DNA of 32,000 bases from Pseudomonas aeruginosa (GCF_001457615.1 NZ_LN831024.1:930001-962000); one strand, 5' to 3'. Counted from the stretch's first letter, positions 1 to 31,548 are shown. The notes: a model not told the origin generated them from the letters alone. Numbers and translations: made by a program.

Positions 1-119
1 CCCCTCACCTCCAGTGGTTGCAGATCGCCGAAGGCGCTCTGCATATCGCTCCGCTGCTCGTCCTGGGTCTCGTGCGCACATGCCATTCCCGCACGCGGAA
101 TACCGATATTGCGTATGGG

Positions 120-410
120 CGAAGGCTTTCTGAGGGATATGCAAGTTTCCTGGGTAGGATTTCGCGCAAATAAACGAACGCTATTTTCCAGTCGATAGTT
201 TCAGCTTGTCGCGGAACTCTTTTTTCAAACTTTTTTCTGCTCTGGCTTGTCCGTTTCGTATTTCATCGTTTTTCATAAATGTCTACGTAGACGTTTTTCG
301 GGGGCTGTTTCAAGTGTCTTTGTTGTTAGTTTACGAGGCGAAAAAATAGTAGTTTTACTATATTAAATATCGTCGGTTTCACTAGAAAATACACATGTTC
401 ACTTTGAACC
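120..410. promoter_or_regulatory. AT-rich intergenic island upstream of the response-regulator gene; contains a 12-bp perfect palindrome GTCTACGTAGAC (281-292) and direct TTCACT repeats (377-382, 397-402)
   Basis: Hand count over 181-410 gives about 37% G+C (84/230), against clearly GC-rich flanks. No credible ORF. The palindrome and repeats were read directly from the sequence. The function (promoter or xenogeneic-silencer target) is inferred. Confidence 0.4.
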
Positions 411-555
411 GGGGCAGTGGCGTCGGCGGATTCCGGACCGCGCTTTCCTCCTTGCCGGCCGAGCGGCGGCCGCCTGCCTGCGGCAGGCATGACCGAGACC
501 ACAGGTTTCCTGGTAACGCTTTCGCCTGCCGTGTACCGCTTAAGGAGACGCAAGG

Positions 556-1200
556 ATGTCCCTACATCGCATTCGCGTAATGGTTGCGGATGATCATCCC
601 GCCATTTCGCTGGGTATTTCCTACGAACTGAGTCAGTGCGGTTCTCTGGAGATGCTCGGTCAAGTTTCCAATTCTACCGAGTTGATCGGTCGGCTCAACG
701 AAGGCGACTGCGATGTCGTTATCGTCGACTATACGATGCCGGGCGGGAAATATGGCGATGGACTGGCATTGTTGTCATTGCTGCGGCGACGTTATCCGCA
801 TCTGCAATTGGTTGTCTTTACCATGCTGAACAATCCGGGCCTTATCCGGGCCATTCTCAAGCAGGGTATCAATTGCATCCTCAGCAAGTCCGACTCGACC
901 AGTCACCTGCTGGCGGCGGTGAGCGCGGCCTATTCGCGAAACCAGTATTTCTCGCCGTCGATCAGGGACATCTTCGTCAACCAGGTGCTTTCCTCGCACA
1001 ACGAACGGCTGACGCCCCGGGAGGCGGAAATCGTCCGTCTGTTCGGCTCCGGACTGACCATCACCGAGATCGCCGAGCGCTCGCATCGCAGCGTGCAGAC
1101 CATCAGTACGCAGAAGGTCAGTGCCATGAAGAAGCTCGGCATCAAGCGCGATGCCGACCTAATCAGGTATGCGGCGGAGGGCTATTGCCGGATGCCCTGA
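556..1200 (+). CDS. Orphan two-component response regulator, NarL/FixJ (LuxR-HTH) family, RcsB-like
   Basis: ATG at 556, with AAGGAG at 542-547. Receiver domain (RVMVADDHP..., DVVIVDYTMPGGKYGDG, VVFTMLNNP) resembles the RcsB PGxKYGDG loop. C-terminal GerE/LuxR HTH (LTPREAEIVRLFGSGLTITEIAERSHRSVQTISTQKVSAMKKLG). No sensor kinase in the window. Confidence 0.9.
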   Translation: MSLHRIRVMVADDHPAISLGISYELSQCGSLEMLGQVSNSTELIGRLNEGDCDVVIVDYTMPGGKYGDGLALLSLLRRRYPHLQLVVFTMLNNPGLIRAILKQGINCILSKSDSTSHLLAAVSAAYSRNQYFSPSIRDIFVNQVLSSHNERLTPREAEIVRLFGSGLTITEIAERSHRSVQTISTQKVSAMKKLGIKRDADLIRYAAEGYCRMP

Positions 1201-1214
1201 CGGATCGGCCCGCT

Positions 1215-1904
1215 TCACCAGGGCAGCGGCTGGTTCCGATAATCGACGAAGCGACAGGCATTCACGCCCGCGGCATCCTCCACCGTCGCGACCAGTCCGG
1301 CGGCGCTTTCCTCGACGCTCAGCGGCGCGCTGTCGCCGCCCATTTCGGTACGCACCCAGCCGGGATGCAGGAGCAACAGGCTGAACGGCAACTCCTCGAA
1401 CTCGCCCTCCCAACTGCGTACCAGGCTGTTCAGCGCCGCCTTGCTGGCGCCGTAGAGCGGCATCGTGGCCGACAGGCCCAGCGCCAGGCTGGCCATCTGC
1501 GAACTCATGAACGCCACCACGCCACCCCGGCTAACCCGTCCGGACAGTGCCCTGGCCAGGCGCAGCGGCGCGATGGCGTTGGTCAGGAATAGCTGGGCGG
1601 TCTGCTCGGCGTCGATTTCCGCCACATCCTGTTGCTGCGGGCCGTAGATGCCGGCGTTGACGATCAGGCGATCGATCCGCCGCTCGCCCAGCATCTCGCC
1701 GATGCGTTCGGCGCAATCGTGTTGGTTGAGGTCGCCGGTCACCGCTTGCAAGCGCTCCCCGGCCCGCTCCGCCAGTGCCTGCAGCCCGGGAGAGCCTTGC
1801 GGTCGCCGGGCGACGGCGAATACCTGTGCGCCACGTTGCAGGAAGGCATCCGCCAGTCCCAGGCCGATGCCGCGCGAGGCGCCGACGATCAGAACGTTGT
1901 GCAT
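1215..1904 (-). CDS. Short-chain dehydrogenase/reductase (SDR, CsgA/C-factor-like)
   Basis: 229-aa ORF with typical GC3-rich codons. Cofactor motif VGASRGIGLG and catalytic YGASK. GGAG lies 6 nt upstream of the ATG (1904). It sits 88 bp downstream of the NRPS-like gene on the same strand. Confidence 0.9.
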   Translation of the reverse strand: MHNVLIVGASRGIGLGLADAFLQRGAQVFAVARRPQGSPGLQALAERAGERLQAVTGDLNQHDCAERIGEMLGERRIDRLIVNAGIYGPQQQDVAEIDAEQTAQLFLTNAIAPLRLARALSGRVSRGGVVAFMSSQMASLALGLSATMPLYGASKAALNSLVRSWEGEFEELPFSLLLLHPGWVRTEMGGDSAPLSVEESAAGLVATVEDAAGVNACRFVDYRNQPLPW

Positions 1905-1992
1905 GAGGTTCTCCGGGCGATAAAGCGGACAGGATACCCAAGCGCGTCCCGCTGCGTAACCGCCGCGGCGACCGGCCGCGGCGGCCTCGACC

Positions 1993-4968
1993 TTACCGCA
2001 TGGCGCTGCCGCCCAGGCCGGCGAGGTACAGGTCGAGCAGGCGGTCGTCGAACTCCGGCTCGCGCACGGCGCTCCCGCGCAGGTGTTCCTCGACGTTGGT
2101 GCAGTCCCAGAGATAGGTGTCCTGGTACAACTCGACGGTGCTGCGGCCGGCGTACATGTTGTCGCGGAACATGCTCAGCAGGGGATAGAGCGGGGCGTCG
2201 CGATTGTCTTCCCAGAGACTTACCCAGTCGTCGAACGGCATCTGCCGAAGGGGACGCCCGGCGCGTCGCCCGAGACGGCCGAAGAACTCGTCCAGGGTCA
2301 GGCAGCGCGGAATGCTCGGCACCAGGTTGAATTTCTTGCCCAGCGCCGAAGGCTGGCGGGCGATGACGCTGATCGCCTCTACCATGTAGTCCACCGTGGT
2401 CAGGCCCTCGCGCAGCTCGCGCAGGAGCGGCACGGCCCGGTACTCCAGGCAGGTCCGCGCCAGCCGGCTCCACCACTGGTAGTCGGCGTAGGCGCCGGTA
2501 CGGCTGTGGCAGGTGGCGTAGCCGAGGCGGAAGGTCATCAGCGGCAGGCCGCGTTCGGCGGCGAGGTCGGCGATCTTTTCCATCACCCATTTGCTGCGCA
2601 CGTAGCCCATGTCGGTGACCACCGCCGGCAGGTTCTGGTCGATGTCGTCGTCCTCGCGCATCAGGCGCTTGCCGGTATGCAGGTGGCCCCAGCTGTACAC
2701 CGAGATGCTCGACAGCAGCATCAGCGGCTTGCAGCGGCCGCTGGCGCAGAAGCGCAGGACCTGGCCGAGCCCCTCGACGTTGTCGCGCTTCATGTAGCTG
2801 TATGGCTGGATGAAGTTCACCGCGCTGGCGGAATGGAAGACCTGGTCGACGCTGCCGGCCAGCTCGCGATAGGTTTCCGCCGGTAGTCCGAAACCTGGTT
2901 CGGCGAGGTCGGCGGCGTAGGCCCTGACCCGTCGCCAGTCCGTCTCGGCGAGTTCGATGCGGTGCTGCCGGGCGGCCTGGCGCAGGCGTTCGAGGGCATG
3001 GGCGTCGTTTTGCGCACGGACCGGACAATGCAGGTCGGCCTCGCGGCTGGCCAGCAGCTCGGCGAGCAGGTGGGCGCCCATCAGCCCGCTGGCGCCGGTG
3101 AGCAGGATGTGCCGTGGCGCCAGCAATTGGGCGGTGTCCATGGGGCGGCTGAAATCCACGTCGGCGGGCAGGCGCACGTCCCGTTGCAGCTCCTGGGCCG
3201 GTTCGCTGTCCAGCGCCGGCGGCGCTTCGCCGGCGCGCCGCGCCAGGCTGGCCGCCAGTTGGCGCACGCTCGGGGTGCGGTAGATGTCGTGGATGTAGGC
3301 ACGGTTGCCGAAGCGTCGGCTCAATTCGCGCACCAGGGCGGCGGCCAGCAGGGAATGGCCGCCGACCTCGAAGAAGCTGTCGTCCAGGCCGAAGTCGGTA
3401 TGCCCCAGCACTTCCTGCCAGGACAGGGCCACTTGCAGTTCGCCGGGGGTGCCGAAGCGTTGCTCGTCGAGTCGTTCCTGGCATTGTTCGTCCAGGTGTC
3501 GACGCAGGGCCTGGCGGTCGATCTTGCCGTTGACCGTGGTCGGCAGGCTGTCCAGCGACAGGTAGCGGCTGGGCAGCATGTAGTCGGGCAGTTCCTGGCG
3601 CAGTGCGGTCTTGATGGCGGCGAGCACGGCCCTGGCATCGCCGTCCTGCTGGCGGGGGACCACGAAGGCGCTCAATTGCTGGCTACCGGAGCGTGGGTCG
3701 GCATGCGCCAGCACCACCGCGCCGTGGATAGCCGGCTGGCGCAACAGCGCGGCCTCGACGTCGCCGAGTTCGACGCGGTGGCCGCGGATCTTCACCTGGT
3801 CGTCCAGCCGACCGAGGAACTGCAGGCTGCCATCGGCCAGGCAGCGGGCCTTGTCGCCGGTGCGGTAGAGCCGACGCCGCAGTGCCTGCGAGTAGTGGAA
3901 GCGCCTGGCGGTCATGTCCGGGTCGCGCAGGTATTCGCGCGCCAGGCAGACGCCCGCCAGGTTCAGCTCACCGGGTCGGTCGCCATGGCAAGGCCGGTCG
4001 TCGGCGTCGAGGATGAATGCCTCGCAGCCGTCGATGGGCGTGCCGATCGAGGCGGGTCGCCGATGTGCTTCGGCGTCGACGATGCGGCAGGTGGCGAAGA
4101 CCGTGGCCTCGGTCGGGCCGTAGTAATCCACCACGGTATAGGGCAGCCCGCCGGTTGCGACCGGCGGCAGTTTTTCCCCGGCGCAGAACAGGTAGCGCAG
4201 CGCCAGCGACGGCGGGGCGGGCTGCTCCGCCAGCGCGGGCACCATCACGGTAGGCGCGAAGGCGTGGCTGATCCGCTGCTCGGCGAAGAATGCCAGCAGC
4301 GCCGCCGGGTCTGGGCGCACCTCGTCGGGCACCAGGTGGAGGCAGGCGCCTGCGCACAGGGTGGACCAGATTTCCCATTGGGAAACGTCGAAGCCGACGC
4401 CGGCCATCAGGGTGGTGCGGCTCCGTTGATCCATATTGAAGCGCCGGTTGTGCCAGCTCACGAGGTTGGCCAGGGAGCGACTCTCGATCACCACGCCCTT
4501 GGGTTCGCCGGTGGTGCCCGAGGTGAAGATCACATACAGCGCTTCGCTGCCGTCGAGCGCCGGTCTCGGCGCGGCACCCGCCGCACTCGTCGCGAGCGCC
4601 TGTGCGATGACCTCCACCGGTTGCCCCGGCAGGTCCTCGGCCTGGGTGGCGAGGGCCAAGGGGGCCTGGCACTGGCGGAGGATTTCCCGCTTGCGCCTGT
4701 CGGGTTGTCGACGGTCCACCGGTACGTAGGCCGCTGCGCACTTGGCGGCCGCCAGGATGGCGATGACCAGTTCGGCCGAGCGTTCGGCCAGCAGGGGCAG
4801 CAGCTCGCCCTGGGCGACGCCGCGCCTGGCCAGGTGGGCGGCCAGCCGGTCGCTGAGCCGGTCGAGTTCGCGGTAGCTGAACGAGCGCTCGCGATCGACG
4901 AGGGCGGGGCGTTCGGGATGGGTATCTGCGTGTTGCCTGAATAAGCCAAGAACAGAATCTTTCGACAT
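1993..4968 (-). CDS. Single-module NRPS-like enzyme, adenylation - carrier (PCP) - terminal thioester reductase (A-T-R); no condensation domain
   Basis: 991 aa. A-domain motifs: LYVIFTSGTTGEPKGV, FDVSQW, YYGPTE, YRTGD, GRLDDQVKIRGHRVELGDVE, NGKIDR. Carrier motif FFEVGGHSLLAAAL (Ser539). Reductase Rossmann motif ILLTGASGLMGAHLL and YVRSK. GGAG lies 8 nt upstream of the ATG (4968). Confidence 0.93.
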   Translation of the reverse strand: MSKDSVLGLFRQHADTHPERPALVDRERSFSYRELDRLSDRLAAHLARRGVAQGELLPLLAERSAELVIAILAAAKCAAAYVPVDRRQPDRRKREILRQCQAPLALATQAEDLPGQPVEVIAQALATSAAGAAPRPALDGSEALYVIFTSGTTGEPKGVVIESRSLANLVSWHNRRFNMDQRSRTTLMAGVGFDVSQWEIWSTLCAGACLHLVPDEVRPDPAALLAFFAEQRISHAFAPTVMVPALAEQPAPPSLALRYLFCAGEKLPPVATGGLPYTVVDYYGPTEATVFATCRIVDAEAHRRPASIGTPIDGCEAFILDADDRPCHGDRPGELNLAGVCLAREYLRDPDMTARRFHYSQALRRRLYRTGDKARCLADGSLQFLGRLDDQVKIRGHRVELGDVEAALLRQPAIHGAVVLAHADPRSGSQQLSAFVVPRQQDGDARAVLAAIKTALRQELPDYMLPSRYLSLDSLPTTVNGKIDRQALRRHLDEQCQERLDEQRFGTPGELQVALSWQEVLGHTDFGLDDSFFEVGGHSLLAAALVRELSRRFGNRAYIHDIYRTPSVRQLAASLARRAGEAPPALDSEPAQELQRDVRLPADVDFSRPMDTAQLLAPRHILLTGASGLMGAHLLAELLASREADLHCPVRAQNDAHALERLRQAARQHRIELAETDWRRVRAYAADLAEPGFGLPAETYRELAGSVDQVFHSASAVNFIQPYSYMKRDNVEGLGQVLRFCASGRCKPLMLLSSISVYSWGHLHTGKRLMREDDDIDQNLPAVVTDMGYVRSKWVMEKIADLAAERGLPLMTFRLGYATCHSRTGAYADYQWWSRLARTCLEYRAVPLLRELREGLTTVDYMVEAISVIARQPSALGKKFNLVPSIPRCLTLDEFFGRLGRRAGRPLRQMPFDDWVSLWEDNRDAPLYPLLSMFRDNMYAGRSTVELYQDTYLWDCTNVEEHLRGSAVREPEFDDRLLDLYLAGLGGSAMR

Positions 4969-5093
4969 GGCTGAGACTCCTGTCTTGCCGGTGGAAAAGA
5001 CGTTATCCGTGGTTTTTCAGCGTATCGAGCGGGGACCAGGGGGAAGGCTGGCGATAGGCCTGGTCCAAGGCTAGCCCCGAGGGGAAATGCGGC

Positions 5094-5113
5094 AACTGCC
5101 ATTTGGTACAGGG
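5094..5113 (-). promoter_or_regulatory. Candidate las/rhl (lux-type) box AACTGCCATTTGGTACAGGG, about 130 bp upstream of the NRPS-like start
   Basis: Has the CT-N12-AG core. By eye, the reverse complement CCCTGTACCAAATGGCAGTT matches 14 of 20 positions of the remembered rhlA box TCCTGTGAAATCTGGCAGTT. This is a pattern match only. Confidence 0.3.
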
Positions 5114-5177: not shown

Positions 5178-5384
5178 TCAGTCCAACTGGCCTTCCCGGT
5201 CGTCGAAGATCGCTTCTATGGCCAGTCCGAACACCCGGGCGAGCTTGAACGCCAAGGGCAGGCTTGGATCGTAGCGGCCGGTTTCGATGGCGTTCACCGT
5301 CTGCCGCGATACCTCCAGCTTTCCGGCCAGCTCCGCCTGTGACCAACCGCGCTCCGCGCGCAACTCGCGAACGCGGTTCCTCAT
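5178..5384 (-). CDS. Small XRE/Cro-type HTH transcriptional regulator (68 aa, YozG-like)
   Basis: MRNRVRELRAERGWSQAELAGKLEVSRQTVNAIETGRYDPSLPLAFKLARVFG is a canonical HTH_3 sequence. The ATG at 5382-5384 overlaps the TGA of the upstream membrane-protein gene (ATGA). The 544-aa track ORF is an upstream artefact extension. Confidence 0.88.
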   Translation of the reverse strand: MRNRVRELRAERGWSQAELAGKLEVSRQTVNAIETGRYDPSLPLAFKLARVFGLAIEAIFDDREGQLD

Positions 5385-5770
5385 GCGTAGCGCCTCAGTC
5401 CCAGGACGCAGCCGATGACCCAGAACGCGCCCATCAGGGGCCAGACGAAGAACATCGAGAGTTTCGGAAAGCCGGTGGTTTCGAGGAAACCGTAGGTGAA
5501 GGTGAGCAGGGCGGTGCCGACGAAGGCCAGGGCGAGGGCTTCGAGATGGATGCGCCGGGCCATTTCGTCGAGGCGCCGCAGGTAACGGATCACCACCAGC
5601 GCCAGGGCGACCATCGGTGGCACCGGCAGCAGGGCGAGGAAGACCCGGCCGGCGCCCGGTTCCGTGCCTGCCAGCAACTGGCCGCTGATCAGAACGGCAG
5701 CGGCATAGCCGACCAGCGCGAGAAGCAGTTCGAGGAAGAAACGTTTGTGGGTCATGGTTGAACCGTCCAT
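5381..5770 (-). CDS. Small integral membrane protein (about 4 TM) co-transcribed with the XRE regulator
   Basis: 129-aa ORF (alternative start at 5755, MTHKRFF). Hydrophobic segments: LLLALVGYAAAVLISGQLL, VFLALLPVPPMVALALVVI, LALAFVGTALLTF, FFVWPLMGAFWVIGCVL. 4-nt stop/start overlap with the XRE gene. Confidence 0.75.
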   Translation of the reverse strand: MDGSTMTHKRFFLELLLALVGYAAAVLISGQLLAGTEPGAGRVFLALLPVPPMVALALVVIRYLRRLDEMARRIHLEALALAFVGTALLTFTYGFLETTGFPKLSMFFVWPLMGAFWVIGCVLGLRRYA

Positions 5771-5827: not shown

Positions 5828-5861
5828 CTCTATGGGCTTGCCTTGGCGAGGAGACTCGGGG

Positions 5862-6698
5862 ATGGTAGCGGGCGGTCTCTGGGAGAACGGCGAAATGGCG
5901 ACGGGCGACGAATTCGACGCGCTGCTGGTGGAAGCCGGCCGCACACCGATGCGCGGCTGGGAATACGACTATGGCGGACGCATCCGCCTGGAACCGCCGC
6001 CATGGGATTTCCCGGGGCGCATGCTGGAGCGCTGCCGGGCCGCCGCCAGCCTGCTGGACATGGGCACCGGCGGCGGCGAATGGTTGAGCCGGCTGCCGTA
6101 TCGTCCGCCGCTCACCGTGGCTACCGAGGGCTGGGCGCCCAACCTGGAGATTGCCCGGGGTCGCCTGGAGCCCCTGGGCATCCGCGTGGTCGAGGTGGAG
6201 GGCGCGCCGGACAACCATCGCCAGGGCCGGGAGGGCGATGGCGGCGGGGCGTTGCCGTTCGCCGATGGCACCTTCGACCTGGTCGGCAACCGCCACGAGT
6301 CCTATCTGCCATCGGAGGTCCGGCGGGTGCTGGCGCCCGGCGGCTGTTTCCTCACCCAGCAGGTGGCCGGCGACTTCAACCGCGAGTTCTATGCGTTGCT
6401 CGGCGAACCGGCGCCGCCGCCGGAGGCACCGCACTGGAATCTGGGTTTCGCCCGCGCCCAGCTGGAGGCCGCGGAGTTGCCGCCGGTGGCAGGCGGCGAA
6501 GGTTGGGAGGTGTTGCACTTCGCCGATGTCGGCGCCCTGGCCTGGTACCTGTTGAACCTGCCCTGGGTATTTCCCGGTTTTTCCTTCAGGCGCCACCGCA
6601 AGGGCCTGCGCGGCCTGCACGAGAGCGGCGAGCCGCTGGCGGTGCGGCAGTTCCTCTTCTGGCTGGAGGCGCGCAACCCCCAGGCCGCGCGCGGCTAG
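5862..6698 (+). CDS. Class I SAM-dependent methyltransferase
   Basis: Motif I LLDMGTGGGEWL and post-I/II region LAPGGCFLTQQV. The ORF is open from 5832. The ATG at 5862 has GAGGAG at 5848-5853, and ATG 5895 is also possible. The stop overlaps the stop of the convergent LuxR gene. Confidence 0.82.
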   Translation: MVAGGLWENGEMATGDEFDALLVEAGRTPMRGWEYDYGGRIRLEPPPWDFPGRMLERCRAAASLLDMGTGGGEWLSRLPYRPPLTVATEGWAPNLEIARGRLEPLGIRVVEVEGAPDNHRQGREGDGGGALPFADGTFDLVGNRHESYLPSEVRRVLAPGGCFLTQQVAGDFNREFYALLGEPAPPPEAPHWNLGFARAQLEAAELPPVAGGEGWEVLHFADVGALAWYLLNLPWVFPGFSFRRHRKGLRGLHESGEPLAVRQFLFWLEARNPQAARG

Positions 6699-7363: not shown

Positions 7364-7591
7364 GGCGCGGGGCTCCCGTGGGACGAGGCGGCGGGACGTC
7401 CACTGTCCCGCCTGCCGGGCAGAATGTCCATGCCCCGGCGTGCCGTCTTGTCTTTCTCTGCCTGGCTTGGCAGGCAGCGGCAAGAAACCCGGCAGGCTGG
7501 AGCAAGCGAGCGGGGGAGCGGCGGGTCCAGAGTATTCCCGGGTAGTAGGCGCATGCACGACGCAGCGCCGTCGCCAAGCCGAGGAGCACAC

Positions 7592-9079
7592 ATGAGTATT
7601 GCCATCGACCCGTCCGTCAGCGCCTTCTTGCGCAGTCCCCATGGCCTGCTGATCGACGGTGAGTCCGGGCCGGCGCGTTCCGGCGCCGACATGCCGCTGT
7701 ACGACCCGGCGACCGGCGCCGAGCTGGCTCGCGTGGCCCGCGCCGGCGCCGAAGACGTCGATCGGGCGGTCGCTGCCGCGCGGCGCGCGTTCGAAGGCAA
7801 CTGGGCAGGCCAGCGCCCGGCCGATCGCGAGCGCCTGCTGCTGCGACTGGCGGAACGGGTCGAGGCGCATGGCGAGCAACTGGCGCAGTTGGAAACCCTG
7901 AACAACGGCAAGTCGATCAACCTGTCGCGGGCCCTGGAGGTCGGCGCCTCGGTGGAGTTCATCCGCTACATGGCCGGCTGGGCGACCAAGATCGAGGGTC
8001 GCAGCCTCGACCTGTCGATCGCCGCGGTCCCAGGCGCGCGCTACCGGGCCTACACGGTGCCGGAGCCGGTGGGCGTGGTCGGAGCCATCGTGCCGTGGAA
8101 TTTCCCCTTGCTGATGGCGATCTGGAAGATCGTCCCGGCCCTGGCCTGCGGCTGCACCGTGGTCCTCAAGCCGGCCGACGAAACCCCGCTGACCGCCCTG
8201 CGCCTCGGCCAGTTGTGCCTGGAGGCGGGGATTCCGCCAGGAGTGGTGAACATCGTCACCGGCACGGGCGCCGAGGCCGGCGCGGCACTGGCGGCGCACC
8301 CGGGCATCGACAAGCTGGCGTTCACCGGCTCGACCCCGGTGGGCAAGCTGATCGGGCATGCGGCGGTGGAGAACATGACGCGTTTTTCCCTCGAACTCGG
8401 CGGCAAATCCCCGGTGATCATCCTCGATGACACCAGCCTGGACATGGCTGCCGCCGGTTCCGCCGGCGCGATCTTCTTCAACCAGGGGCAGGTCTGCACC
8501 GCTGGCTCGCGCCTCTATGTGCAGCGCAAGCGTTTCGACCAGGTGCTGGAGCGCCTGGTGGCCATCGCCGGCGACCTGAGCATCGGCCCCGGCCTGGATC
8601 CGACCACGCAGATCAACCCGCTGGTCTCGGCCAGGCAGCAGGAGCGGGTGCTGGGGATGATCGAAAGCGGGGTGGCCGAGGGCGCCAGCGTGGTCTGCGG
8701 TGGGGCGCGCCAGGGCGAGACGGGGTTCTACGTGCAGCCGACGATCCTTGCCGACGTCACCCCGGGGATGCAGGTGGTGCGCGAGGAAATCTTCGGGCCG
8801 GTGCTGGTGGCGACGCCCTTCGACGATCTCGACGAAGCGGTGCGCCTGGCCAACGACAGCATCTACGGGCTCGGTGCGAGCATCTGGTCCAACGACCTGC
8901 GCCAGGTCATGGACCTGGTACCCAGGATCAAGGCCGGCACGGTATGGGTGAACGCCCACAACCTGCTCGACCCGTCGATGCCGTTCGGCGGCTTCAAGCA
9001 GTCCGGCATCGGACGCGAGATGGGCCATGCGGCGATCGAGGCGTACACCGAGAACAAGTCGGTGTGCATCGCCTACTGA
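7592..9079 (+). CDS. NAD(P)-dependent aldehyde dehydrogenase, FeaB/PadA (phenylacetaldehyde dehydrogenase)-like
   Basis: 495 aa. GAGGAG at 7581-7586. ALDH motifs: VPWNFPL, ELGGKSP, FFNQGQVCTAGSR (catalytic Cys), EEIFGPV, PFGGFKQSGIGRE. The N- and C-termini (LAQLETLNNGKSI ... TENKSVCIAY) resemble E. coli FeaB as I remember it. Confidence 0.93.
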   Translation: MSIAIDPSVSAFLRSPHGLLIDGESGPARSGADMPLYDPATGAELARVARAGAEDVDRAVAAARRAFEGNWAGQRPADRERLLLRLAERVEAHGEQLAQLETLNNGKSINLSRALEVGASVEFIRYMAGWATKIEGRSLDLSIAAVPGARYRAYTVPEPVGVVGAIVPWNFPLLMAIWKIVPALACGCTVVLKPADETPLTALRLGQLCLEAGIPPGVVNIVTGTGAEAGAALAAHPGIDKLAFTGSTPVGKLIGHAAVENMTRFSLELGGKSPVIILDDTSLDMAAAGSAGAIFFNQGQVCTAGSRLYVQRKRFDQVLERLVAIAGDLSIGPGLDPTTQINPLVSARQQERVLGMIESGVAEGASVVCGGARQGETGFYVQPTILADVTPGMQVVREEIFGPVLVATPFDDLDEAVRLANDSIYGLGASIWSNDLRQVMDLVPRIKAGTVWVNAHNLLDPSMPFGGFKQSGIGREMGHAAIEAYTENKSVCIAY

Positions 9080-14874: not shown

Positions 14875-14903
14875 AGAAAAGGCGCCCGAAGGCGCCTTTT
14901 TCC
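14875..14903 (-). terminator. Rho-independent terminator downstream of oprG (AAAAGGCGCC-CGAA-GGCGCCTTTTT on the plus strand; symmetric, so possibly bidirectional)
   Basis: Perfect GC-rich stem with A/T tracts on both sides, about 35 nt after the oprG stop codon. Confidence 0.8.
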
Positions 14904-15782: not shown

Positions 15783-16322
15783 TCAGCCACCTTCGTATTC
15801 GTAGGGCGTCACCTTGCTCGCCTGCATGCGGTAGCCGGCCGCCGCAAGCTCGCTGCTGGCGTTCTCCACCTTGAAGGTGCCCTCGACCCAGAATGGCTGA
15901 TACAACTCGTCCATCTGCACGCCCTTGGCGGTCTTCACGTAGACGATCTGGTTCGACGGCGGCGGCGGTACGTGGATGCAGGCGCCGTAGTAGGGGACCA
16001 GGAGGAACTCGGTGACCAGCCCGGCCTCGCTGATTTCCAGCGGCACGATGTAGCCCGGCAGCTTGGCCTCGATGCCGTCCAGTGCCTTCACCACCGGGGC
16101 GTTGGGGCTCTGCTGGCTGGCCGCCGGACCGGCTTCGCTGAGGGCGTTGGCGAGGTCGTGGATCGGCAGCGGCGCCGGGGCGGGCGGGGCGCCGGCCGGG
16201 ATCAGTTGCGACCAAGTCAGTTCGCGCGGCGCGGCGCGCGCCACGGCACTGCCCAGGAGCAGGGCGAAAGCCAGCAGGAGGACGGTCAGGGAGCGCAGCA
16301 TCGGGGAATATCTCCGGGTCAT
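15783..16322 (-). CDS. DUF3299-type secreted protein, last gene of the zinc-type ABC operon
   Basis: Signal peptide MLRSLTVLLLAFALLLGSAVARA, then LVPYYGACIHVPPPP. ATG 16322 overlaps the permease TGA (ATGA). Alternative start ATG 16301. Confidence 0.8.
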   Translation of the reverse strand: MTRRYSPMLRSLTVLLLAFALLLGSAVARAAPRELTWSQLIPAGAPPAPAPLPIHDLANALSEAGPAASQQSPNAPVVKALDGIEAKLPGYIVPLEISEAGLVTEFLLVPYYGACIHVPPPPSNQIVYVKTAKGVQMDELYQPFWVEGTFKVENASSELAAAGYRMQASKVTPYEYEGG

Positions 16323-17584
16323 AGGCGGATCGACAGGCCATCGGCCAGGGACTGGCGGTAGGCGCGCCAGGCCGGCACGCAGCCGATCAGCACGGCGGCC
16401 GCCAGGATAGCCCCGAGCAGGCTCCACTCATAGTCGCTCGGCCAGGCCAGCGGCAGGTAGATGCCGTAGTTGGCCTGGACGTAGCCCTGGCTGGCGGCGA
16501 TGCCGAGGTAGAGCAGGCCGAGGCCGAGGGCGACGCCGGCCAGCGCCAGGCTGAAGGCCTCGGCCAGCAGCAGGCCGAAGATGTGCCAGGGGCGCGCGCC
16601 CACCGAGCGCAGGATGGCCATCTCCCGGCGGCGCTCGTTGAGGCTGGTGAGGATCGCCGTGAGCATGCCGATCAGGCCGGTGAGGACGACGAACAGCGAG
16701 ACCACGAACAGTGCCTTCTCGGCGGTGCCCATCAGGCCCCACAGTTCCTGCAGGGCGACACCGGGGAGGATCGCCATCAGCGGTTCGCCGGGATAGTCGT
16801 TGACCTCGCGTTGCAGGGCGAAGGTCGCCACCTTGCTCTTCAGGCCGACCAGGAACGCGGTGATCGCCTGTGGTTGCAGGTCCATGTGCCGCGCCTGCTC
16901 GGCACTGACGCGCCCGGCGCCCATCGCCGGCACCCCGTTGCGCCAGTCGACGTGCAGCGCCTCCATGCCGGCGAGGGATATGTGCAGGGTGCGGTCCACC
17001 GGGGTACCGGTGCGCTGGAGGATGCCGACCACGGTGAACGGCTTGTCGTCGTGCTTGACCAGGCTCACCGTGCTCACCCCATGGGCCAGCACGATCTTCT
17101 CGCCGAGCCTGTAGTGCAGGGCTTCGGCCACCTCGGCGCCGAGCACCACGTCGAACAGGTCCTGGCCGAAGGCGCGGCCCTCGGCCAGTTGCAGTTCCTG
17201 GCCGCGGCCGTAGCGGTAGTGCTCGAAATAGCCGGCATCGGTACCCATTACCCGGTAGCCGCGGTGCGAGTCGCCGAGGGAGATCGGGATCGCCCACTTC
17301 ACCCGCGGGTTTTCGGCGAAGTGCCGGTAGCTGTCCCAGCGGATGTTGTTGGTCGCGTTGCCGATGCGGAATACCGAGTAGAGCAGCAGGTTCACCGAGC
17401 CGGAGCGCGCGCCGACGATCAGGTCGGTTCCGGAGATGGTACTGGCGAAGCTGGCCTTGGCCTCGGTGCGGACCCGCTCCACCGCCAGCAGCAGGCAGGC
17501 GGAGAGGGCGATGGCGAAGATCGTCAGCAGGGCGGTGAAGCGGCGGTTGGCCAGGCTGGCCAGTGCCAGTCGGAAGAGATACAT
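16319..17584 (-). CDS. ABC transporter permease, FtsX/MacB-like
   Basis: MYLFRLALASLANRRFTALLTIFAIALSACLLLAV, a large periplasmic domain and a C-terminal 3-TM FtsX region. 421 aa from ATG 17584. The upstream part of the 462-aa track ORF was rejected. Confidence 0.88.
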   Translation of the reverse strand: MYLFRLALASLANRRFTALLTIFAIALSACLLLAVERVRTEAKASFASTISGTDLIVGARSGSVNLLLYSVFRIGNATNNIRWDSYRHFAENPRVKWAIPISLGDSHRGYRVMGTDAGYFEHYRYGRGQELQLAEGRAFGQDLFDVVLGAEVAEALHYRLGEKIVLAHGVSTVSLVKHDDKPFTVVGILQRTGTPVDRTLHISLAGMEALHVDWRNGVPAMGAGRVSAEQARHMDLQPQAITAFLVGLKSKVATFALQREVNDYPGEPLMAILPGVALQELWGLMGTAEKALFVVSLFVVLTGLIGMLTAILTSLNERRREMAILRSVGARPWHIFGLLLAEAFSLALAGVALGLGLLYLGIAASQGYVQANYGIYLPLAWPSDYEWSLLGAILAAAVLIGCVPAWRAYRQSLADGLSIRL

Positions 17585-17586
17585 GC

Positions 17587-18291
17587 TCAGAGTCCTGCCG
17601 GCCGGGCGGCGCGGTTGAGATCGGAAAGGGACAGGCTGCGGTCGAACAGCCCGGCCAGGCTCTGGTCGTGGCTGACGAACAGCAGGCTGGCGCCGGCCTC
17701 GCGGCATTCGGCGAAGAGCAACTGGAGAAACGCCTCGCGGCTGTCGGCGTCGAGCGCCGAGGTCGGCTCGTCGGCGATCACCAGCTCCGGCTGGCCGATC
17801 AGCGCGCGGGCGGCGGCGACCCGCTGCTGCTGGCCGATGGACAGGCTGTCGGCGCGGCGTTCGTGCAGTTCGCCGCCGAGGCCGAGCTGGCCGAGCAGAT
17901 GGCTGGCGGCCTGCGCCGGGCTACCGTGGCGTTCGCGGGCGCGCTGACGGCGCAACGCGGAAAAGTGACAGGGCAGCTCGACGTTCTCGCGTACCGAGAG
18001 GAATGGCAGCAGGTTGAACTGCTGGAAGATGTAGCCGGTGTGGTCGACGCGGAAATGGTCGCGGCGCGCGGCGGACAGCTTTTCCAGGTCCTCGCCGAGC
18101 AGGCGGATGCTGCCGCGGCCGGGCTTCTGCACGCCGCCGAGGAGGCCGAGCAGGGTGGTCTTGCCGCTGCCGGAAGGCCCCTTGAGGAACAGGCTCTCGC
18201 CGCGTTCGAGATGGAAGCTGGGAATGTCCAGCAACTCCGCCTGGCCGGGCCAGGCGAAGCCGAGGTTGGTCAGGGTGATCAGTGCGCTCAT
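17587..18291 (-). CDS. ABC transporter ATP-binding protein (LolD/MacB-type)
   Basis: Walker A GPSGSGKTT, signature LSIGQQQRV, Walker B LVIADEPTSALD, H-loop VSHD. Confidence 0.93.
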   Translation of the reverse strand: MSALITLTNLGFAWPGQAELLDIPSFHLERGESLFLKGPSGSGKTTLLGLLGGVQKPGRGSIRLLGEDLEKLSAARRDHFRVDHTGYIFQQFNLLPFLSVRENVELPCHFSALRRQRARERHGSPAQAASHLLGQLGLGGELHERRADSLSIGQQQRVAAARALIGQPELVIADEPTSALDADSREAFLQLLFAECREAGASLLFVSHDQSLAGLFDRSLSLSDLNRAARPAGL

Positions 18292-18334
18292 GGGGGTAGG
18301 GGCGGAACGCTCCGCCGGAGCCTCGAGAATGGAT

Positions 18335-18370
18335 GGAGGGGCGCCGCGCCGAATCCCTCGCGGCGCCTCC
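18335..18370 (-). other. GC-rich intercistronic stem-loop between the His-rich protein gene and the ABC ATPase gene
   Basis: GGAGGG-GCGCCGCG-(10 nt loop)-CGCGGCGC-CTCC, read from the sequence. The function (mRNA processing/stability or attenuation) is inferred. Confidence 0.3.
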
Positions 18371-18379
18371 GGAACGATC

Positions 18380-18958
18380 CTACAGCTTCAGCTCGGCGCT
18401 GGCCGGAGCCAGGTCGGCGCCTTTCTGGCCGTCGGGACCGATCAGTTGTACCTGAATTTTCTGGGTGGCGGGGAAGCGCTTGAAGAACTCGGCGAGGGTC
18501 AGCAGCTTGAGCAGCTCGGGCTTCTCGCAACTGAGCTGGTAATGGGCGTGGATATCGGCATGACCGTGTTCGTGTTCGTGTTCGTGGCCTGCCTTCTCCT
18601 TGTGCGCGTGGGCCGGCGCCTTGTCGCCGAACAGCGGACTCCGCAGTTCCTGGCTGGCCACCGAGCAGCCGGCGGTGACCGGCAGGGCGAACAGCTCCAG
18701 CGGTTTTTCCAGCTGCGCGCGGGCCTTGGCCACGGCGGCCTTGTCCGCGTCGGTGCTGGCGGCGTGTTCGAAACCGACCAGGTTCATCGCCGGGCTGTCC
18801 AGCTCCAGTTCGAGGGTCTTGCCGTCCAGCGCCACGTTCAACTGGGCGACGCCGTGCTCGTGCTTGCCCAGGCTGCCATGGGCGTGGTCATGGTCGTGGT
18901 CGTCATGGGCCTGGGCGGCGAACGGCAGCAAGACGAGGGCTAACAGCAGTGGGCGCAT
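18380..18958 (-). CDS. Periplasmic histidine-rich metal (zinc)-binding protein (DUF2796-like; matches PA4063 of PAO1 from memory)
   Basis: Signal peptide MRPLLLALVLLPFAAQA. His-rich tracts HDDHDHDHAHGSLGKHEHG and HAHKEKAGHEHEHEHGHADIHAH. GGAG lies 8 nt upstream of the ATG. Confidence 0.88.
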   Translation of the reverse strand: MRPLLLALVLLPFAAQAHDDHDHDHAHGSLGKHEHGVAQLNVALDGKTLELELDSPAMNLVGFEHAASTDADKAAVAKARAQLEKPLELFALPVTAGCSVASQELRSPLFGDKAPAHAHKEKAGHEHEHEHGHADIHAHYQLSCEKPELLKLLTLAEFFKRFPATQKIQVQLIGPDGQKGADLAPASAELKL

Positions 18959-23310: not shown

Positions 23311-23394
23311 ACTTCGCTGCGCGGCGACGCGGCGGACGATGCACAAGCGGCGCAACTGTGGTAAAACGCCACACGGCCATCTCGGTGGCCGTAA

Positions 23395-23551
23395 CGTTCT
23401 CAGGGCGGGGTGAAAGTCCCCACCGGCGGTAATGGCGCGCAAGGCGCCTAGCCCGCGAGCGCTTGCCGGACCGGCCACCGCCGGACGACAAGGTCAGCAG
23501 ACCCGGTGCGATTCCGGGGCCGACGGTCATAGTCCGGATAAAGAGAGAACG
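23395..23551 (+). promoter_or_regulatory. FMN riboswitch (RFN element) aptamer
   Basis: P1 strands CGTTCTC (23395-23401) and GAGAACG (23545-23551). Conserved cores: CAGGGCGGGGTGAAAGTCCCCACCGGCGGTAA, AGCCCGCGAGCG, GGTCAGCAGACCCGGTG and CCGACGGTCATAGTCCGGATAAAGAGAG. Confidence 0.92.
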
Positions 23552-23737
23552 GGATTGCCTGCCTGGGCGTACCCTGTGCGCCCGCAAGATCCCCTTCGAT
23601 CCAAAAAGCCCTGTTTTTCACGAAACAGGAGTTCGTCATATGTCTTCATCTTGGAATACCCGCGCTATGGCACGCAGGCCGCTCGGCGTCGCGCCGGCCA
23701 TGCTGTGCGCCTGTGCGGCGGAAAAACGGGAGGTCGC

Positions 23738-24397
23738 ATGTTCACCGGCATAATCGAGTCGATCGGCAGCGTCCGCGCAATGACGCCCAAGGGCGGCGAC
23801 CTGCGGGTCTACATCGCCACCGGCAAGCTCGACCTGGGCGACGTCAAGCTCGGCGACAGCATCGCGGTCAACGGCGTCTGCCTGACCGCGGTGGAACTGC
23901 CCGGCGATGGCTTCTGGGCCGACGTCAGCCGCGAGAGCCTGGCGCGCACCGCCTTCCAGCACCTGAAGGTGGGCAGCCGGGTGAACCTGGAAAAGGCCCT
24001 GACGCCGACCACCCGCCTCGGCGGACACCTGGTGAGCGGCCACGTCGACGGCGTCGGCGAGGTGCTCAAGCGCGAGGAGAACGCCCGCGCCATCCAGTTC
24101 ACCGTGCGTGCCCCGCGCGAACTGGCCAGGTACATCGCGCACAAGGGCTCGATCACCGTCGACGGCACCAGCCTCACGGTGAACGCGGTGAACGGCGCGG
24201 AGTTCGAGCTGACCATCGTCCCGCATACGCTCAGCGAAACCATCATGGCCGAGTACCAGCCCGGACGCCGGGTCAACCTCGAGGTCGACCTGCTGGCCCG
24301 TTACCTGGAGCGCCTGCTGCTTGGCGACAAGGCCGCCGAGCCCAGCGCCTCCGGCATCAGCGAAGCGTTTCTCGCCGAGAACGGTTTTCTCAAGTAA
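23738..24397 (+). CDS. ribE: Riboflavin synthase alpha chain (called ribC in older PAO1 nomenclature)
   Basis: MFTGIIESIGSV... with the internal duplicated lumazine-binding repeat (GDSIAVNGVCLT / GSITVDGTSLT). GGGAGG at 23728-23733. 219 aa. Confidence 0.95.
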   Translation: MFTGIIESIGSVRAMTPKGGDLRVYIATGKLDLGDVKLGDSIAVNGVCLTAVELPGDGFWADVSRESLARTAFQHLKVGSRVNLEKALTPTTRLGGHLVSGHVDGVGEVLKREENARAIQFTVRAPRELARYIAHKGSITVDGTSLTVNAVNGAEFELTIVPHTLSETIMAEYQPGRRVNLEVDLLARYLERLLLGDKAAEPSASGISEAFLAENGFLK

Positions 24398-31472: not shown

Positions 31473-31548
31473 CCGGCGAATAACGCCGGTGGCGTTATTC
31501 GCCCTACGGGCAATTGGGGGGTAGGGCGAATAACCGCAACGCGGTTAT
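31473..31548. repeat. REP-like cluster of nested inverted repeats built on the unit GTAGGGCGAATAAC(G/C)C
   Basis: Perfect 13-bp hairpin GGCGAATAACGCC-GGT-GGCGTTATTCGCC (31475-31503). A reverse copy GGCGTTATTCGCCCTAC (31491-31507) pairs with GTAGGGCGAATAAC (31521-31534). A further hairpin ATAACCGC-AAC-GCGGTTAT lies at 31530-31548. The cluster sits between the convergent btuF-like and dxs genes. Confidence 0.7.

Follow-up and report, generated by a model that had tools for sequence, protein, structure and literature searches.

PA4078 of Pseudomonas aeruginosa is probably a self-sufficient single-module A-T-R amino-acid reductase

We analysed a stretch of 32,000 nucleotides of the Pseudomonas aeruginosa chromosome (GCF_001457615.1, NZ_LN831024.1:930001-962000; hereafter the window), high-GC DNA of about 68% GC, and in particular the gene PA4078, whose product of 991 residues carries an adenylation (A), a carrier (T) and a thioester reductase (R) domain. 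At a probability of roughly 0.68, we read PA4078 as a self-sufficient, single-module amino-acid reductase of the nonribosomal peptide synthetase (NRPS)-like kind, comparable to PvfC, HamD, GupB and ATRed. In the literature the gene (PA14_11140) is annotated as a "probable non-ribosomal peptide synthetase". An earlier interpretation made from the DNA alone, called here the sequence-only reading, had instead joined it to the downstream gene PA4079, which encodes a short-chain dehydrogenase/reductase (SDR), as a split four-electron module. Both genes were catalogued earlier and PA4079 has already been crystallised; what is newly added, and is modestly new, is the family-level picture (a wide distribution, a code that stays fixed, no partner genes) together with the negative result on a partnership with the SDR.

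Results

PA4078 has a complete A-T-R architecture

Pfam models placed AMP-binding at residues 10-347 of PA4078 (E 7e-71), AMP-binding_C at 404-482, PP-binding at 516-573 and NAD_binding_4 at 623-866. The protein also passed the NCBIfam models for amino-acid adenylation (TIGR01733, 367 bits vs a cutoff of 317) and, over residues 620-989, for thioester reductases (TIGR01746, 400 bits vs 213); it passed none of the NCBIfam equivalog cutoffs. The core motifs of the A domain are all present (SGTTG 150-154, FDVSQW 193-198, YGPTE 283-287, YRTGD 368-372 and NGKIDR 480-485), the phosphopantetheine site is GGHS at 536-539 with Ser539, and the R domain carries TGASGLMG (624-631) and YVRSK (789-793; Y789-x3-K793). 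The full A domain, the carrier domain and the terminal R domain that the sequence-only reading had described were thus recovered with the same motif positions. That reading had also proposed that condensation (C), epimerisation (E) and thioesterase (TE) domains are absent. Hidden Markov model searches agreed, with no match for any of the three on PA4078 in Pfam or NCBIfam, and a hidden domain of these kinds was excluded because the unassigned stretches (1-9, 483-515 and 574-619) are too short. Nor does any of the remaining open reading frames (ORFs) in the 32-kb window encode a further NRPS module, as had been claimed; they comprise regulators, transporters and housekeeping genes (zinc uptake genes, ybbN, nrdR, riboflavin genes, nusB, thiL and pgpA).

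An AlphaFold model of PA4078, built from an 18-sequence alignment, had a mean pLDDT of 85.5. Its A domain superposed on GrsA PheA with a TM score of 0.86 and a root-mean-square deviation of 2.5 angstroms, and a Foldseek search with the model returned the expected NRPS folds and nothing further. The solved structures nearest to the R domain were 8V1X, the R domain of a type I polyketide synthase, and then MxaA (4U7W, E 1e-46). MxaA is the nearest solved relative with a known function, 8V1X alone scoring higher, and by itself it carries a thioester through the full four-electron reduction to a primary alcohol. By its predicted domains and motifs, PA4078 shows all the sequence-level features of the stand-alone A-T-R reductases.

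The A-T-R family spans several phyla with a near-invariant code

P. aeruginosa records contain identical copies of both proteins, and the cluster of the 991-residue protein at 90% identity holds 2606 sequences. There are hundreds of full-length relatives of about 990 residues with the same A-T-R order, which share 42-60% identity with PA4078 (84% in P. paraeruginosa). The family occurs in at least 80 species of several phyla, Proteobacteria, Actinobacteria and Bacteroidota among them, and is patchy among species. Members were found in P. paraeruginosa, some fluorescent pseudomonads, the Burkholderia cepacia complex and Paraburkholderia; in the enterics Serratia (including S. marcescens), Enterobacter, Pectobacterium, Pluralibacter, Buttiauxella and Shimwellia; in the other Proteobacteria Vibrio, Photobacterium, Halomonas, Dyella, Lysobacter and Bradyrhizobium; in the Actinobacteria Nocardia, Amycolatopsis and Actinosynnema; and in the Bacteroidota, with many Chryseobacterium, Sphingobacterium, Pedobacter and Flavobacterium. 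Among the 240 best database relatives of PA4078, no protein has a functional name. In the searchable literature, which does not extend to most subscription journals, PA4078, PA4079 and PA14_11140 appear in omics tables only and no paper that gives PA4078 a product was found; within that scope the sequence-only reading was right to call it an enzyme with no known product.

Conservation was read from an alignment of 85 sequences, namely the window protein and 84 comparison loci (L001-L084). The phosphopantetheine Ser, the glycines of GxxGxxG and the R-domain Tyr and Lys are kept in every member (85/85). The specificity code, D-[VI]-W-[AG]-F-[AG]-Y-[IV]-[FY]-K, hardly varies and has many aromatic residues: the ten Stachelhaus-type positions read DVWAFAY[IV]FK in 34 of the 85 members, including PA4078, and DIWGF[GA]YV[YF]K in 33 members from Bacteroidota, with variants in Halomonas and in the fluorescent pseudomonads, the latter having DL[SA][GA]Y[AC][CY]I[FY]K. 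Median identity to PA4078 was 56% in the R domain vs 45% in the A core. This pattern of conservation points to a single substrate and reaction that family members may share.

The nearest relatives outside P. aeruginosa and P. paraeruginosa were metagenomic and actinobacterial (Nocardia and Amycolatopsis) with 55-60% identity, and the proteins of other Pseudomonas shared only 47-52% with PA4078. Because the members in other Pseudomonas are less similar and the code of the fluorescent clade differs, these data suggest either horizontal transfer or a substrate switch in the fluorescent-Pseudomonas clade.

No neighbour of the A-T-R gene is conserved across genera

Nine proteins encoded near PA4078 in the window were compared by tblastn with the 84 comparison loci, including flanks of up to 10 kb, and a PA4079-like SDR was counted when it lay within 10 kb at E <= 1e-10. 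Results showed that such an SDR lies near the A-T-R gene at a single locus (1/84), that of P. paraeruginosa, where an XRE regulator, a membrane protein and a response regulator are syntenic as well. No neighbour conserved across genera emerged from clustering of the ORFs within 4 kb at the 84 loci or from the genes around four homologues. Upstream gaps are mostly longer than 150 bp and the downstream gene often lies on the opposite strand, and the A-T-R gene usually looks monocistronic. Several candidates for a general partner were rejected: neighbours shared within Chryseobacterium, as their synteny is confined to the genus; a LysR regulator and a glutathione-reductase-like gene, found at 7 of 84 loci each; and a methyltransferase, common to two loci only. 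Since no neighbour is kept from genus to genus and the SDR is present at one locus in 84, the A-T-R family enzyme would be expected to work without a dedicated partner, and PA4079 appears to have joined PA4078 only in the lineage of P. aeruginosa and P. paraeruginosa.

Photobacterium halotolerans (L019 13004-13819) and Lysobacter enzymogenes (L014 13474-14415) have homologous genes resembling S-adenosylmethionine-dependent methyltransferases (41% identity), which lie downstream of the A-T-R gene on the same strand, at 15 bp in Photobacterium and about 480 bp in Lysobacter, and were seen at no other locus.

The adenylation pocket and its likely substrate class

The specificity code of PA4078, derived by hand and checked against HMMER alignments, comprises D194, V195, W198, A236, F261, A263, Y282, V290, F291 and K482. 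Asp194, in FDVSQW, aligns with D235 of GrsA and Lys482 belongs to motif A10, and each is 100% conserved in the family. That this A4 motif keeps the Asp which contacts an amino group had been noted in the sequence-only reading; the alignment agrees, and the A10 Lys and the TIGR01733 score likewise speak for an A domain of amino-acid type, as that reading had assumed. The residues lining the pocket (V195, W198, A236, F261, A263, Y282, V290 and F291) include no charged side chain, and the Tyr hydroxyl is the sole polar group. Their summed volume, 1258 cubic angstroms, falls within the range of Gly, Ser, Thr and Cys codes in a crude heuristic comparison with 14 reference codes from the literature (r = -0.64). 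A small substrate is favoured because W198, F261, Y282 and F291 line the pocket. The substrate is probably a small neutral amino acid, a proposal we hold with low confidence because the volume heuristic is weak.

PA4079 resembles generic carbonyl reductases

PA4079 has GASRGIG at residue 8 and YGASK at residue 151, passed NCBIfam PRK08177 (326 bits vs a cutoff of 251) and matched PDB entries 5WQM, 5WQN, 5WQO and 5WQP over its full length (residues 1-229, E 1.7e-146). It also matches Drosophila Sniffer (1SNY) and bacterial NADPH carbonyl reductases, which are generic carbonyl-detoxifying enzymes, and no evidence was found that PA4079-type family members pair with NRPS-like reductases elsewhere. 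By family, PA4079 is thus predicted to be a generic sniffer-type NAD(P)H carbonyl reductase. Its gene lies on the same strand, 88 bp downstream of PA4078 (spacer 1905-1992), with its own Shine-Dalgarno sequence; the position, strand and motifs given in the sequence-only reading were all confirmed. No sigma-70-like promoter was predicted in the spacer.

The spacer contains a GC-rich hairpin with perfect 10-nt arms (1960-1969 and 1975-1984) around a 5-nt loop, and the minimum-free-energy fold extends it to 12 pairs, two of them G.U. A hairpin had been seen here before as a 9-bp stem with a 7-nt loop at 1960-1984; its existence holds, and its stem is slightly longer than that. Within the 32 kb, only three perfect stem-loops have a true loop and 10 bp or more, each outside coding ORFs and just past a stop codon. 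An intrinsic terminator was rejected for the spacer hairpin, which has no U tract and was not called by the terminator scan, and the spacer as a whole (101 nt) folded no better than shuffled sequences (z -0.66). In P. paraeruginosa the hairpin is kept, a C-to-T change leaving a G.U pair.

The second of these stem-loops (14877-14900; AAAAGGCGCC-N4-GGCGCCTTTT) separates an epimerase gene from the OmpW/OprG gene and resembles a terminator for both directions. The third, at 31475-31503, has 13-nt arms and lies between convergent genes.

PA4078 appears to have its own quorum-sensing-responsive promoter

The region upstream of PA4078 is 209 bp long and contains a candidate las/rhl-type box, a possible -10 hexamer and a Shine-Dalgarno sequence (Table 1). 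In P. paraeruginosa, 14 of the 16 positions of the box are kept and the stretch from the box to the start codon is well conserved, and the sequence upstream of the box has diverged. Together these elements would fit a LasR/RhlR-type promoter. The minimal pattern CTG-N10-CAG was found 12 times in the window with 13.5 expected, that is at chance frequency, and the box is therefore treated as a candidate only.

Published omics tables give PA4078 as quorum-sensing regulated and strongly decreased under Tanreqing, a herbal formula that inhibits quorum sensing. In one such transcriptome table PA4078 is flagged as quorum-sensing regulated with values of -2.1 and -3.9, and PA4079 is unflagged with -1.4 in one condition; both mRNAs drop in stationary phase, unequally. 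Beta-lactam treatment lowers the amount of PA4078 protein, which is counted in the soft-core biofilm proteome of clinical isolates and is raised in their biofilms. Taken with the upstream sequence, PA4078 appears to be expressed from its own quorum-sensing-responsive promoter.

Comparison with characterised A-T-R enzymes

PvfC, HamD and CmlP have an A-T-R architecture like that of PA4078. PvfC of the Pseudomonas pvf cluster and HamD of the Burkholderia ham cluster are stand-alone enzymes of the same kind, in which an amino acid is loaded and an aldehyde released toward pyrazine-type signals, but they differ in setting, as PA4078 lacks such flanking genes and so do the four homologues inspected, those in B. 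cenocepacia and P. chlororaphis among them; the comparison is one of architecture and cluster context. The pvf and ham clusters include a diiron N-oxygenase.

GupB of Streptomyces guanipiperazine biosynthesis and ATRed of Xenorhabdus indica (xind01729) convert Tyr or Phe to amino aldehydes, which give pyrazine dimers when the enzyme is expressed alone. They are single-module A-T-R proteins like PA4078 but take aromatic substrates, whereas the crowded pocket of PA4078 suggests a smaller one, and the four genes of the GupB operon include those for an F420 reductase and two P450s. No Xenorhabdus protein, X. indica ATRed included, is among the 240 best relatives of PA4078.

Carboxylic acid reductases (CAR) and fungal Lys2 share with PA4078 the A-T-R order, ATP activation and NADPH-dependent thioester reduction. 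PA4078 scored below the curated cutoffs of both (CAR, NF041592, 141 bits vs 1300; Lys2, TIGR03443, 334 vs 1030), and the A domain of CAR is of the aryl/acyl type, unlike the amino-acid type with a D235 equivalent in PA4078. The A-T-R part of the myxochelin synthetase MxcG gave the best whole-protein NCBIfam alignment (NF038078, 517 bits vs a cutoff of 2300); the R domains of MxcG and of MxaA (myxalamid) are terminal in multimodular or C-domain-containing synthetases, whereas PA4078 has no C domain.

The fungal glycine betaine reductase ATRR (A-T-R1-R2) binds glycine betaine by an aromatic cage and an acidic residue, and the Asp equivalent to D235 is absent from it. It resembles PA4078 in being stand-alone and widely conserved with no conserved cluster, in its aromatic-rich pocket and in a second, SDR-type step. 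ATRR has a fused R2 and has lost the D235 equivalent; PA4078 has a single R domain and an invariant Asp, and its SDR neighbour is not family-wide. Neither of the two marks of an ATRR-type enzyme, the fused second reductase and the lost Asp, is found in PA4078.

The surroundings of PA4078 in the window

The gene order runs from an RcsB-like response regulator through the SDR, the A-T-R gene, a small XRE regulator with a membrane protein, a methyltransferase-like ORF, a LuxR regulator, an aldehyde dehydrogenase, an amino-acid permease, a DUF3156 protein, an AraC regulator and two sugar-nucleotide-type reductases to OmpW/OprG. We take this to be the order of PA4080 down to PA4067 in strain PAO1, and the numbers PA4078 and PA4079 are assigned to the two ORFs solely on this basis. 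Rfam and tRNA scans found nothing at the PA4078/PA4079 locus. The features of the locus are listed in Table 1.

Table 1 Features of the PA4078/PA4079 locus (window positions)
Feature	Position	Strand	Basis or remark
PA4079, classical SDR of 229 aa	1215-1904	-	ORF, PF00106
GC-rich stem-loop without U tract, 3' of the PA4078 stop codon	1958-1986	-	Perfect arms and minimum-free-energy fold
PA4078 (PA14_11140), A-T-R protein of 991 aa	1993-4968	-	ORF and translation
Thioester reductase (R) domain, residues 620-989	2002-3111	-	TIGR01746
Carrier (T/PCP) domain, residues 516-573	3250-3423	-	PF00550; Ser539 codon 3352-3354
Adenylation domain, residues 10-482, amino-acid type	3523-4941	-	PF00501, PF13193, TIGR01733
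Shine-Dalgarno sequence AGGAG	4977-4981	-	8 nt before the PA4078 start codon, read from sequence
Possible -10 hexamer TAGCCT	5068-5073	-	About 22 nt after the candidate box
Candidate las/rhl-type box (CT-N12-AG) CTGTACCAAATGGCAG	5096-5111	-	About 135 bp upstream of the PA4078 ATG

GC content falls to 0.53 in the first kilobase of the window (1-1200), which places the A-T-R/SDR pair at the border of a lower-GC segment. The RcsB-like response regulator gene (556-1200, plus strand) is convergent with the SDR gene, their stop codons being 14 bp apart. Directly upstream of PA4078 and on its strand, genes for a 68-residue XRE-type helix-turn-helix regulator (5178-5384, minus) and a 129-residue membrane protein with no family match (5381-5770, minus) overlap by 4 bp (ATGA); both are retained in P. 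paraeruginosa and do not occur beside other family members.

The methyltransferase-like ORF (5832-6698, plus), flanked by the genes for the LuxR regulator and the small membrane protein, matches Methyltransf_11 weakly. P. paraeruginosa (L050) has no such ORF at that place, the flanking genes being only about 160 bp apart, and the ORF is a lineage-specific insertion or deletion. The aldehyde dehydrogenase gene (7589-9079, plus), about 2.6 kb upstream of PA4078, scored 759 bits on the StyD model, whose cutoff is 850; StyD is the phenylacetaldehyde dehydrogenase of Pseudomonas. This gene and that of the neighbouring amino-acid permease resemble a unit for the catabolism of amines or aldehydes. 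In P. chlororaphis (L002/L026), the A-T-R homologue likewise has orthologues of the aldehyde dehydrogenase, the permease and the LuxR regulator within 10 kb.

Farther away, a zinc-uptake-type cluster (15783-18958, minus) made up of a DUF3299 protein, a MacB/FtsX permease, an ABC ATPase and a ZrgA family protein adjoins the OmpW/OprG gene. An FMN riboswitch (23392-23554, plus; Rfam RF00050, 102 bits, E 7e-23) precedes the riboflavin synthase (lumazine-binding) gene, so that the 5' end of ORF 23432-24397 is listed too far upstream.

Discussion

We propose that the A domain of PA4078 would adenylate one alpha-amino acid, most likely a small and neutral one, and that the acyl group would move onto the phosphopantetheine arm at Ser539. 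The arm is presumably installed by PcpS, which we take to be the single phosphopantetheinyl transferase of the cell. The SDR-type R domain would then reduce the thioester with NAD(P)H to a free amino aldehyde and maybe onward to an amino alcohol, and a free alpha-amino aldehyde could dimerise with itself to a dihydropyrazine or pyrazine, as with GupB and ATRed. We infer the substrate class, the release as aldehyde or alcohol and the fate of the product from domain content and from these likenesses. The absence of conserved neighbours fits an enzyme that needs no partner.

Several observations weigh against this reading. The SDR is kept immediately downstream of PA4078 and on the same strand in both P. 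aeruginosa and P. paraeruginosa, and the spacer has no predicted promoter and a hairpin without a U tract; for these reasons co-transcription of PA4078 and PA4079 and a functional link between them are possible. The argument from pocket size is weak (r = -0.64, n = 14), the code D-V-W-A-F-A-Y-V-F-K is unlike any characterised code that we know of, and a pocket with an aromatic lining and an acidic residue could accommodate a quaternary-ammonium acid too.

The first two of these observations lead back to the split module, in which the R domain of PA4078 would stop at the amino aldehyde and a co-transcribed PA4079 would make the amino alcohol, as the fused R2 does in ATRR. The 88-bp gap on one strand, a separate Shine-Dalgarno sequence for the SDR, a promoterless spacer and the same arrangement in P. 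paraeruginosa would suit it; both family and annotation make PA4079 a carbonyl reductase, and both transcripts go down under Tanreqing in stationary phase. We nevertheless consider it unlikely. At 83 of the 84 loci no PA4079-like SDR lies within 10 kb, despite the same catalytic residues and nearly the same code, and the nearest solved R-domain relative of known function, MxaA, is a four-electron reductase; on these two grounds a split four-electron module is poorly favoured. A strong stem-loop separates the two genes, PA4079 is not flagged as quorum-sensing regulated and responds far more weakly than PA4078, and its family is broad, housekeeping-type and related to Drosophila Sniffer. The SDR as a dedicated, split-off R2, the central proposal of the sequence-only reading, was thus not sustained: its conservation at one locus in 84, the differing responses of the two genes and the generic family of PA4079 all speak against it. 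We take PA4079 to be at most an accessory that reduces or detoxifies a carbonyl and not to be intrinsic to the PA4078 enzyme. The same gene pair could also be read as a piperazine pathway, in which the amino aldehyde from PA4078 dimerises to a cyclic bis-imine and PA4079 reduces its C=N bonds, as with GupB and GupA; the fungal pairs HqlA/HqlB and LnaA/LnaB reportedly follow the same logic. GupB alone indeed yields a pyrazine shunt product and, with a separately encoded reductase, a piperazine, and in the P. aeruginosa lineage a reductase gene does lie directly downstream of the A-T-R gene. Yet PA4079 is a sniffer-type carbonyl reductase unrelated to the F420-dependent GupA, the SDR is not conserved across the A-T-R family, no P450, methyltransferase or similar tailoring enzyme is in an operon with PA4078, and the searchable literature credits no piperazine to this locus. 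We regard this pathway as very improbable.

A different objection concerns the substrate. The box formed by W198, F261, Y282 and F291, with Asp194, might bind a small N-methylated or quaternary-ammonium acid such as a betaine, in which case the family would correspond in bacteria to fungal ATRR or Lys2 and be akin to primary metabolism, not to secondary-metabolite synthesis. A family that spans phyla free of context, with a near-fixed code and higher identity in the R domain (56%) than in the A core (45%), follows a pattern usual for metabolic enzymes; ATRR holds glycine betaine by just such a cage and acidic residue, and the code resembles no characterised amino-acid code that we know of. However, ATRR lacks the D235-equivalent Asp, a clue to its non-amino-acid substrate, and this Asp is invariant in the PA4078 family. 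PA4078 passes the amino-acid adenylation model and has no fused R2 domain, its quorum-sensing and biofilm regulation points toward a secondary metabolite or signal, and the family is patchy among species. We hold such a substrate to be improbable. A bolder view takes in both substrate classes: an unrecognised, phylum-spanning family of self-contained reductases of amino acids (or small ammonium acids), with an aromatic-caged pocket for small substrates and no cluster partners, which might make one shared product (a small amino aldehyde, an amino alcohol or a simple pyrazine), be under quorum-sensing and biofilm control in P. aeruginosa and represent a bacterial counterpart of ATRR or Lys2 and not a conventional secondary-metabolite synthetase. 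It is speculative, and we think it unlikely.

With PA4078 read as a self-sufficient amino-acid reductase, the practical message is that it is a protein to study alone, the adjacent SDR being an optional, lineage-specific accessory. Few genes of NRPS type in P. aeruginosa still lack a product, and PA4078 is among them. Its catalytic residues, and nearly its whole code, recur in homologues from several further opportunistic pathogens and from soil bacteria. For this reason identification of the substrate would annotate hundreds of genomes at once, and a small metabolite common to them (an amino aldehyde, an amino alcohol or a pyrazine) might come to light.

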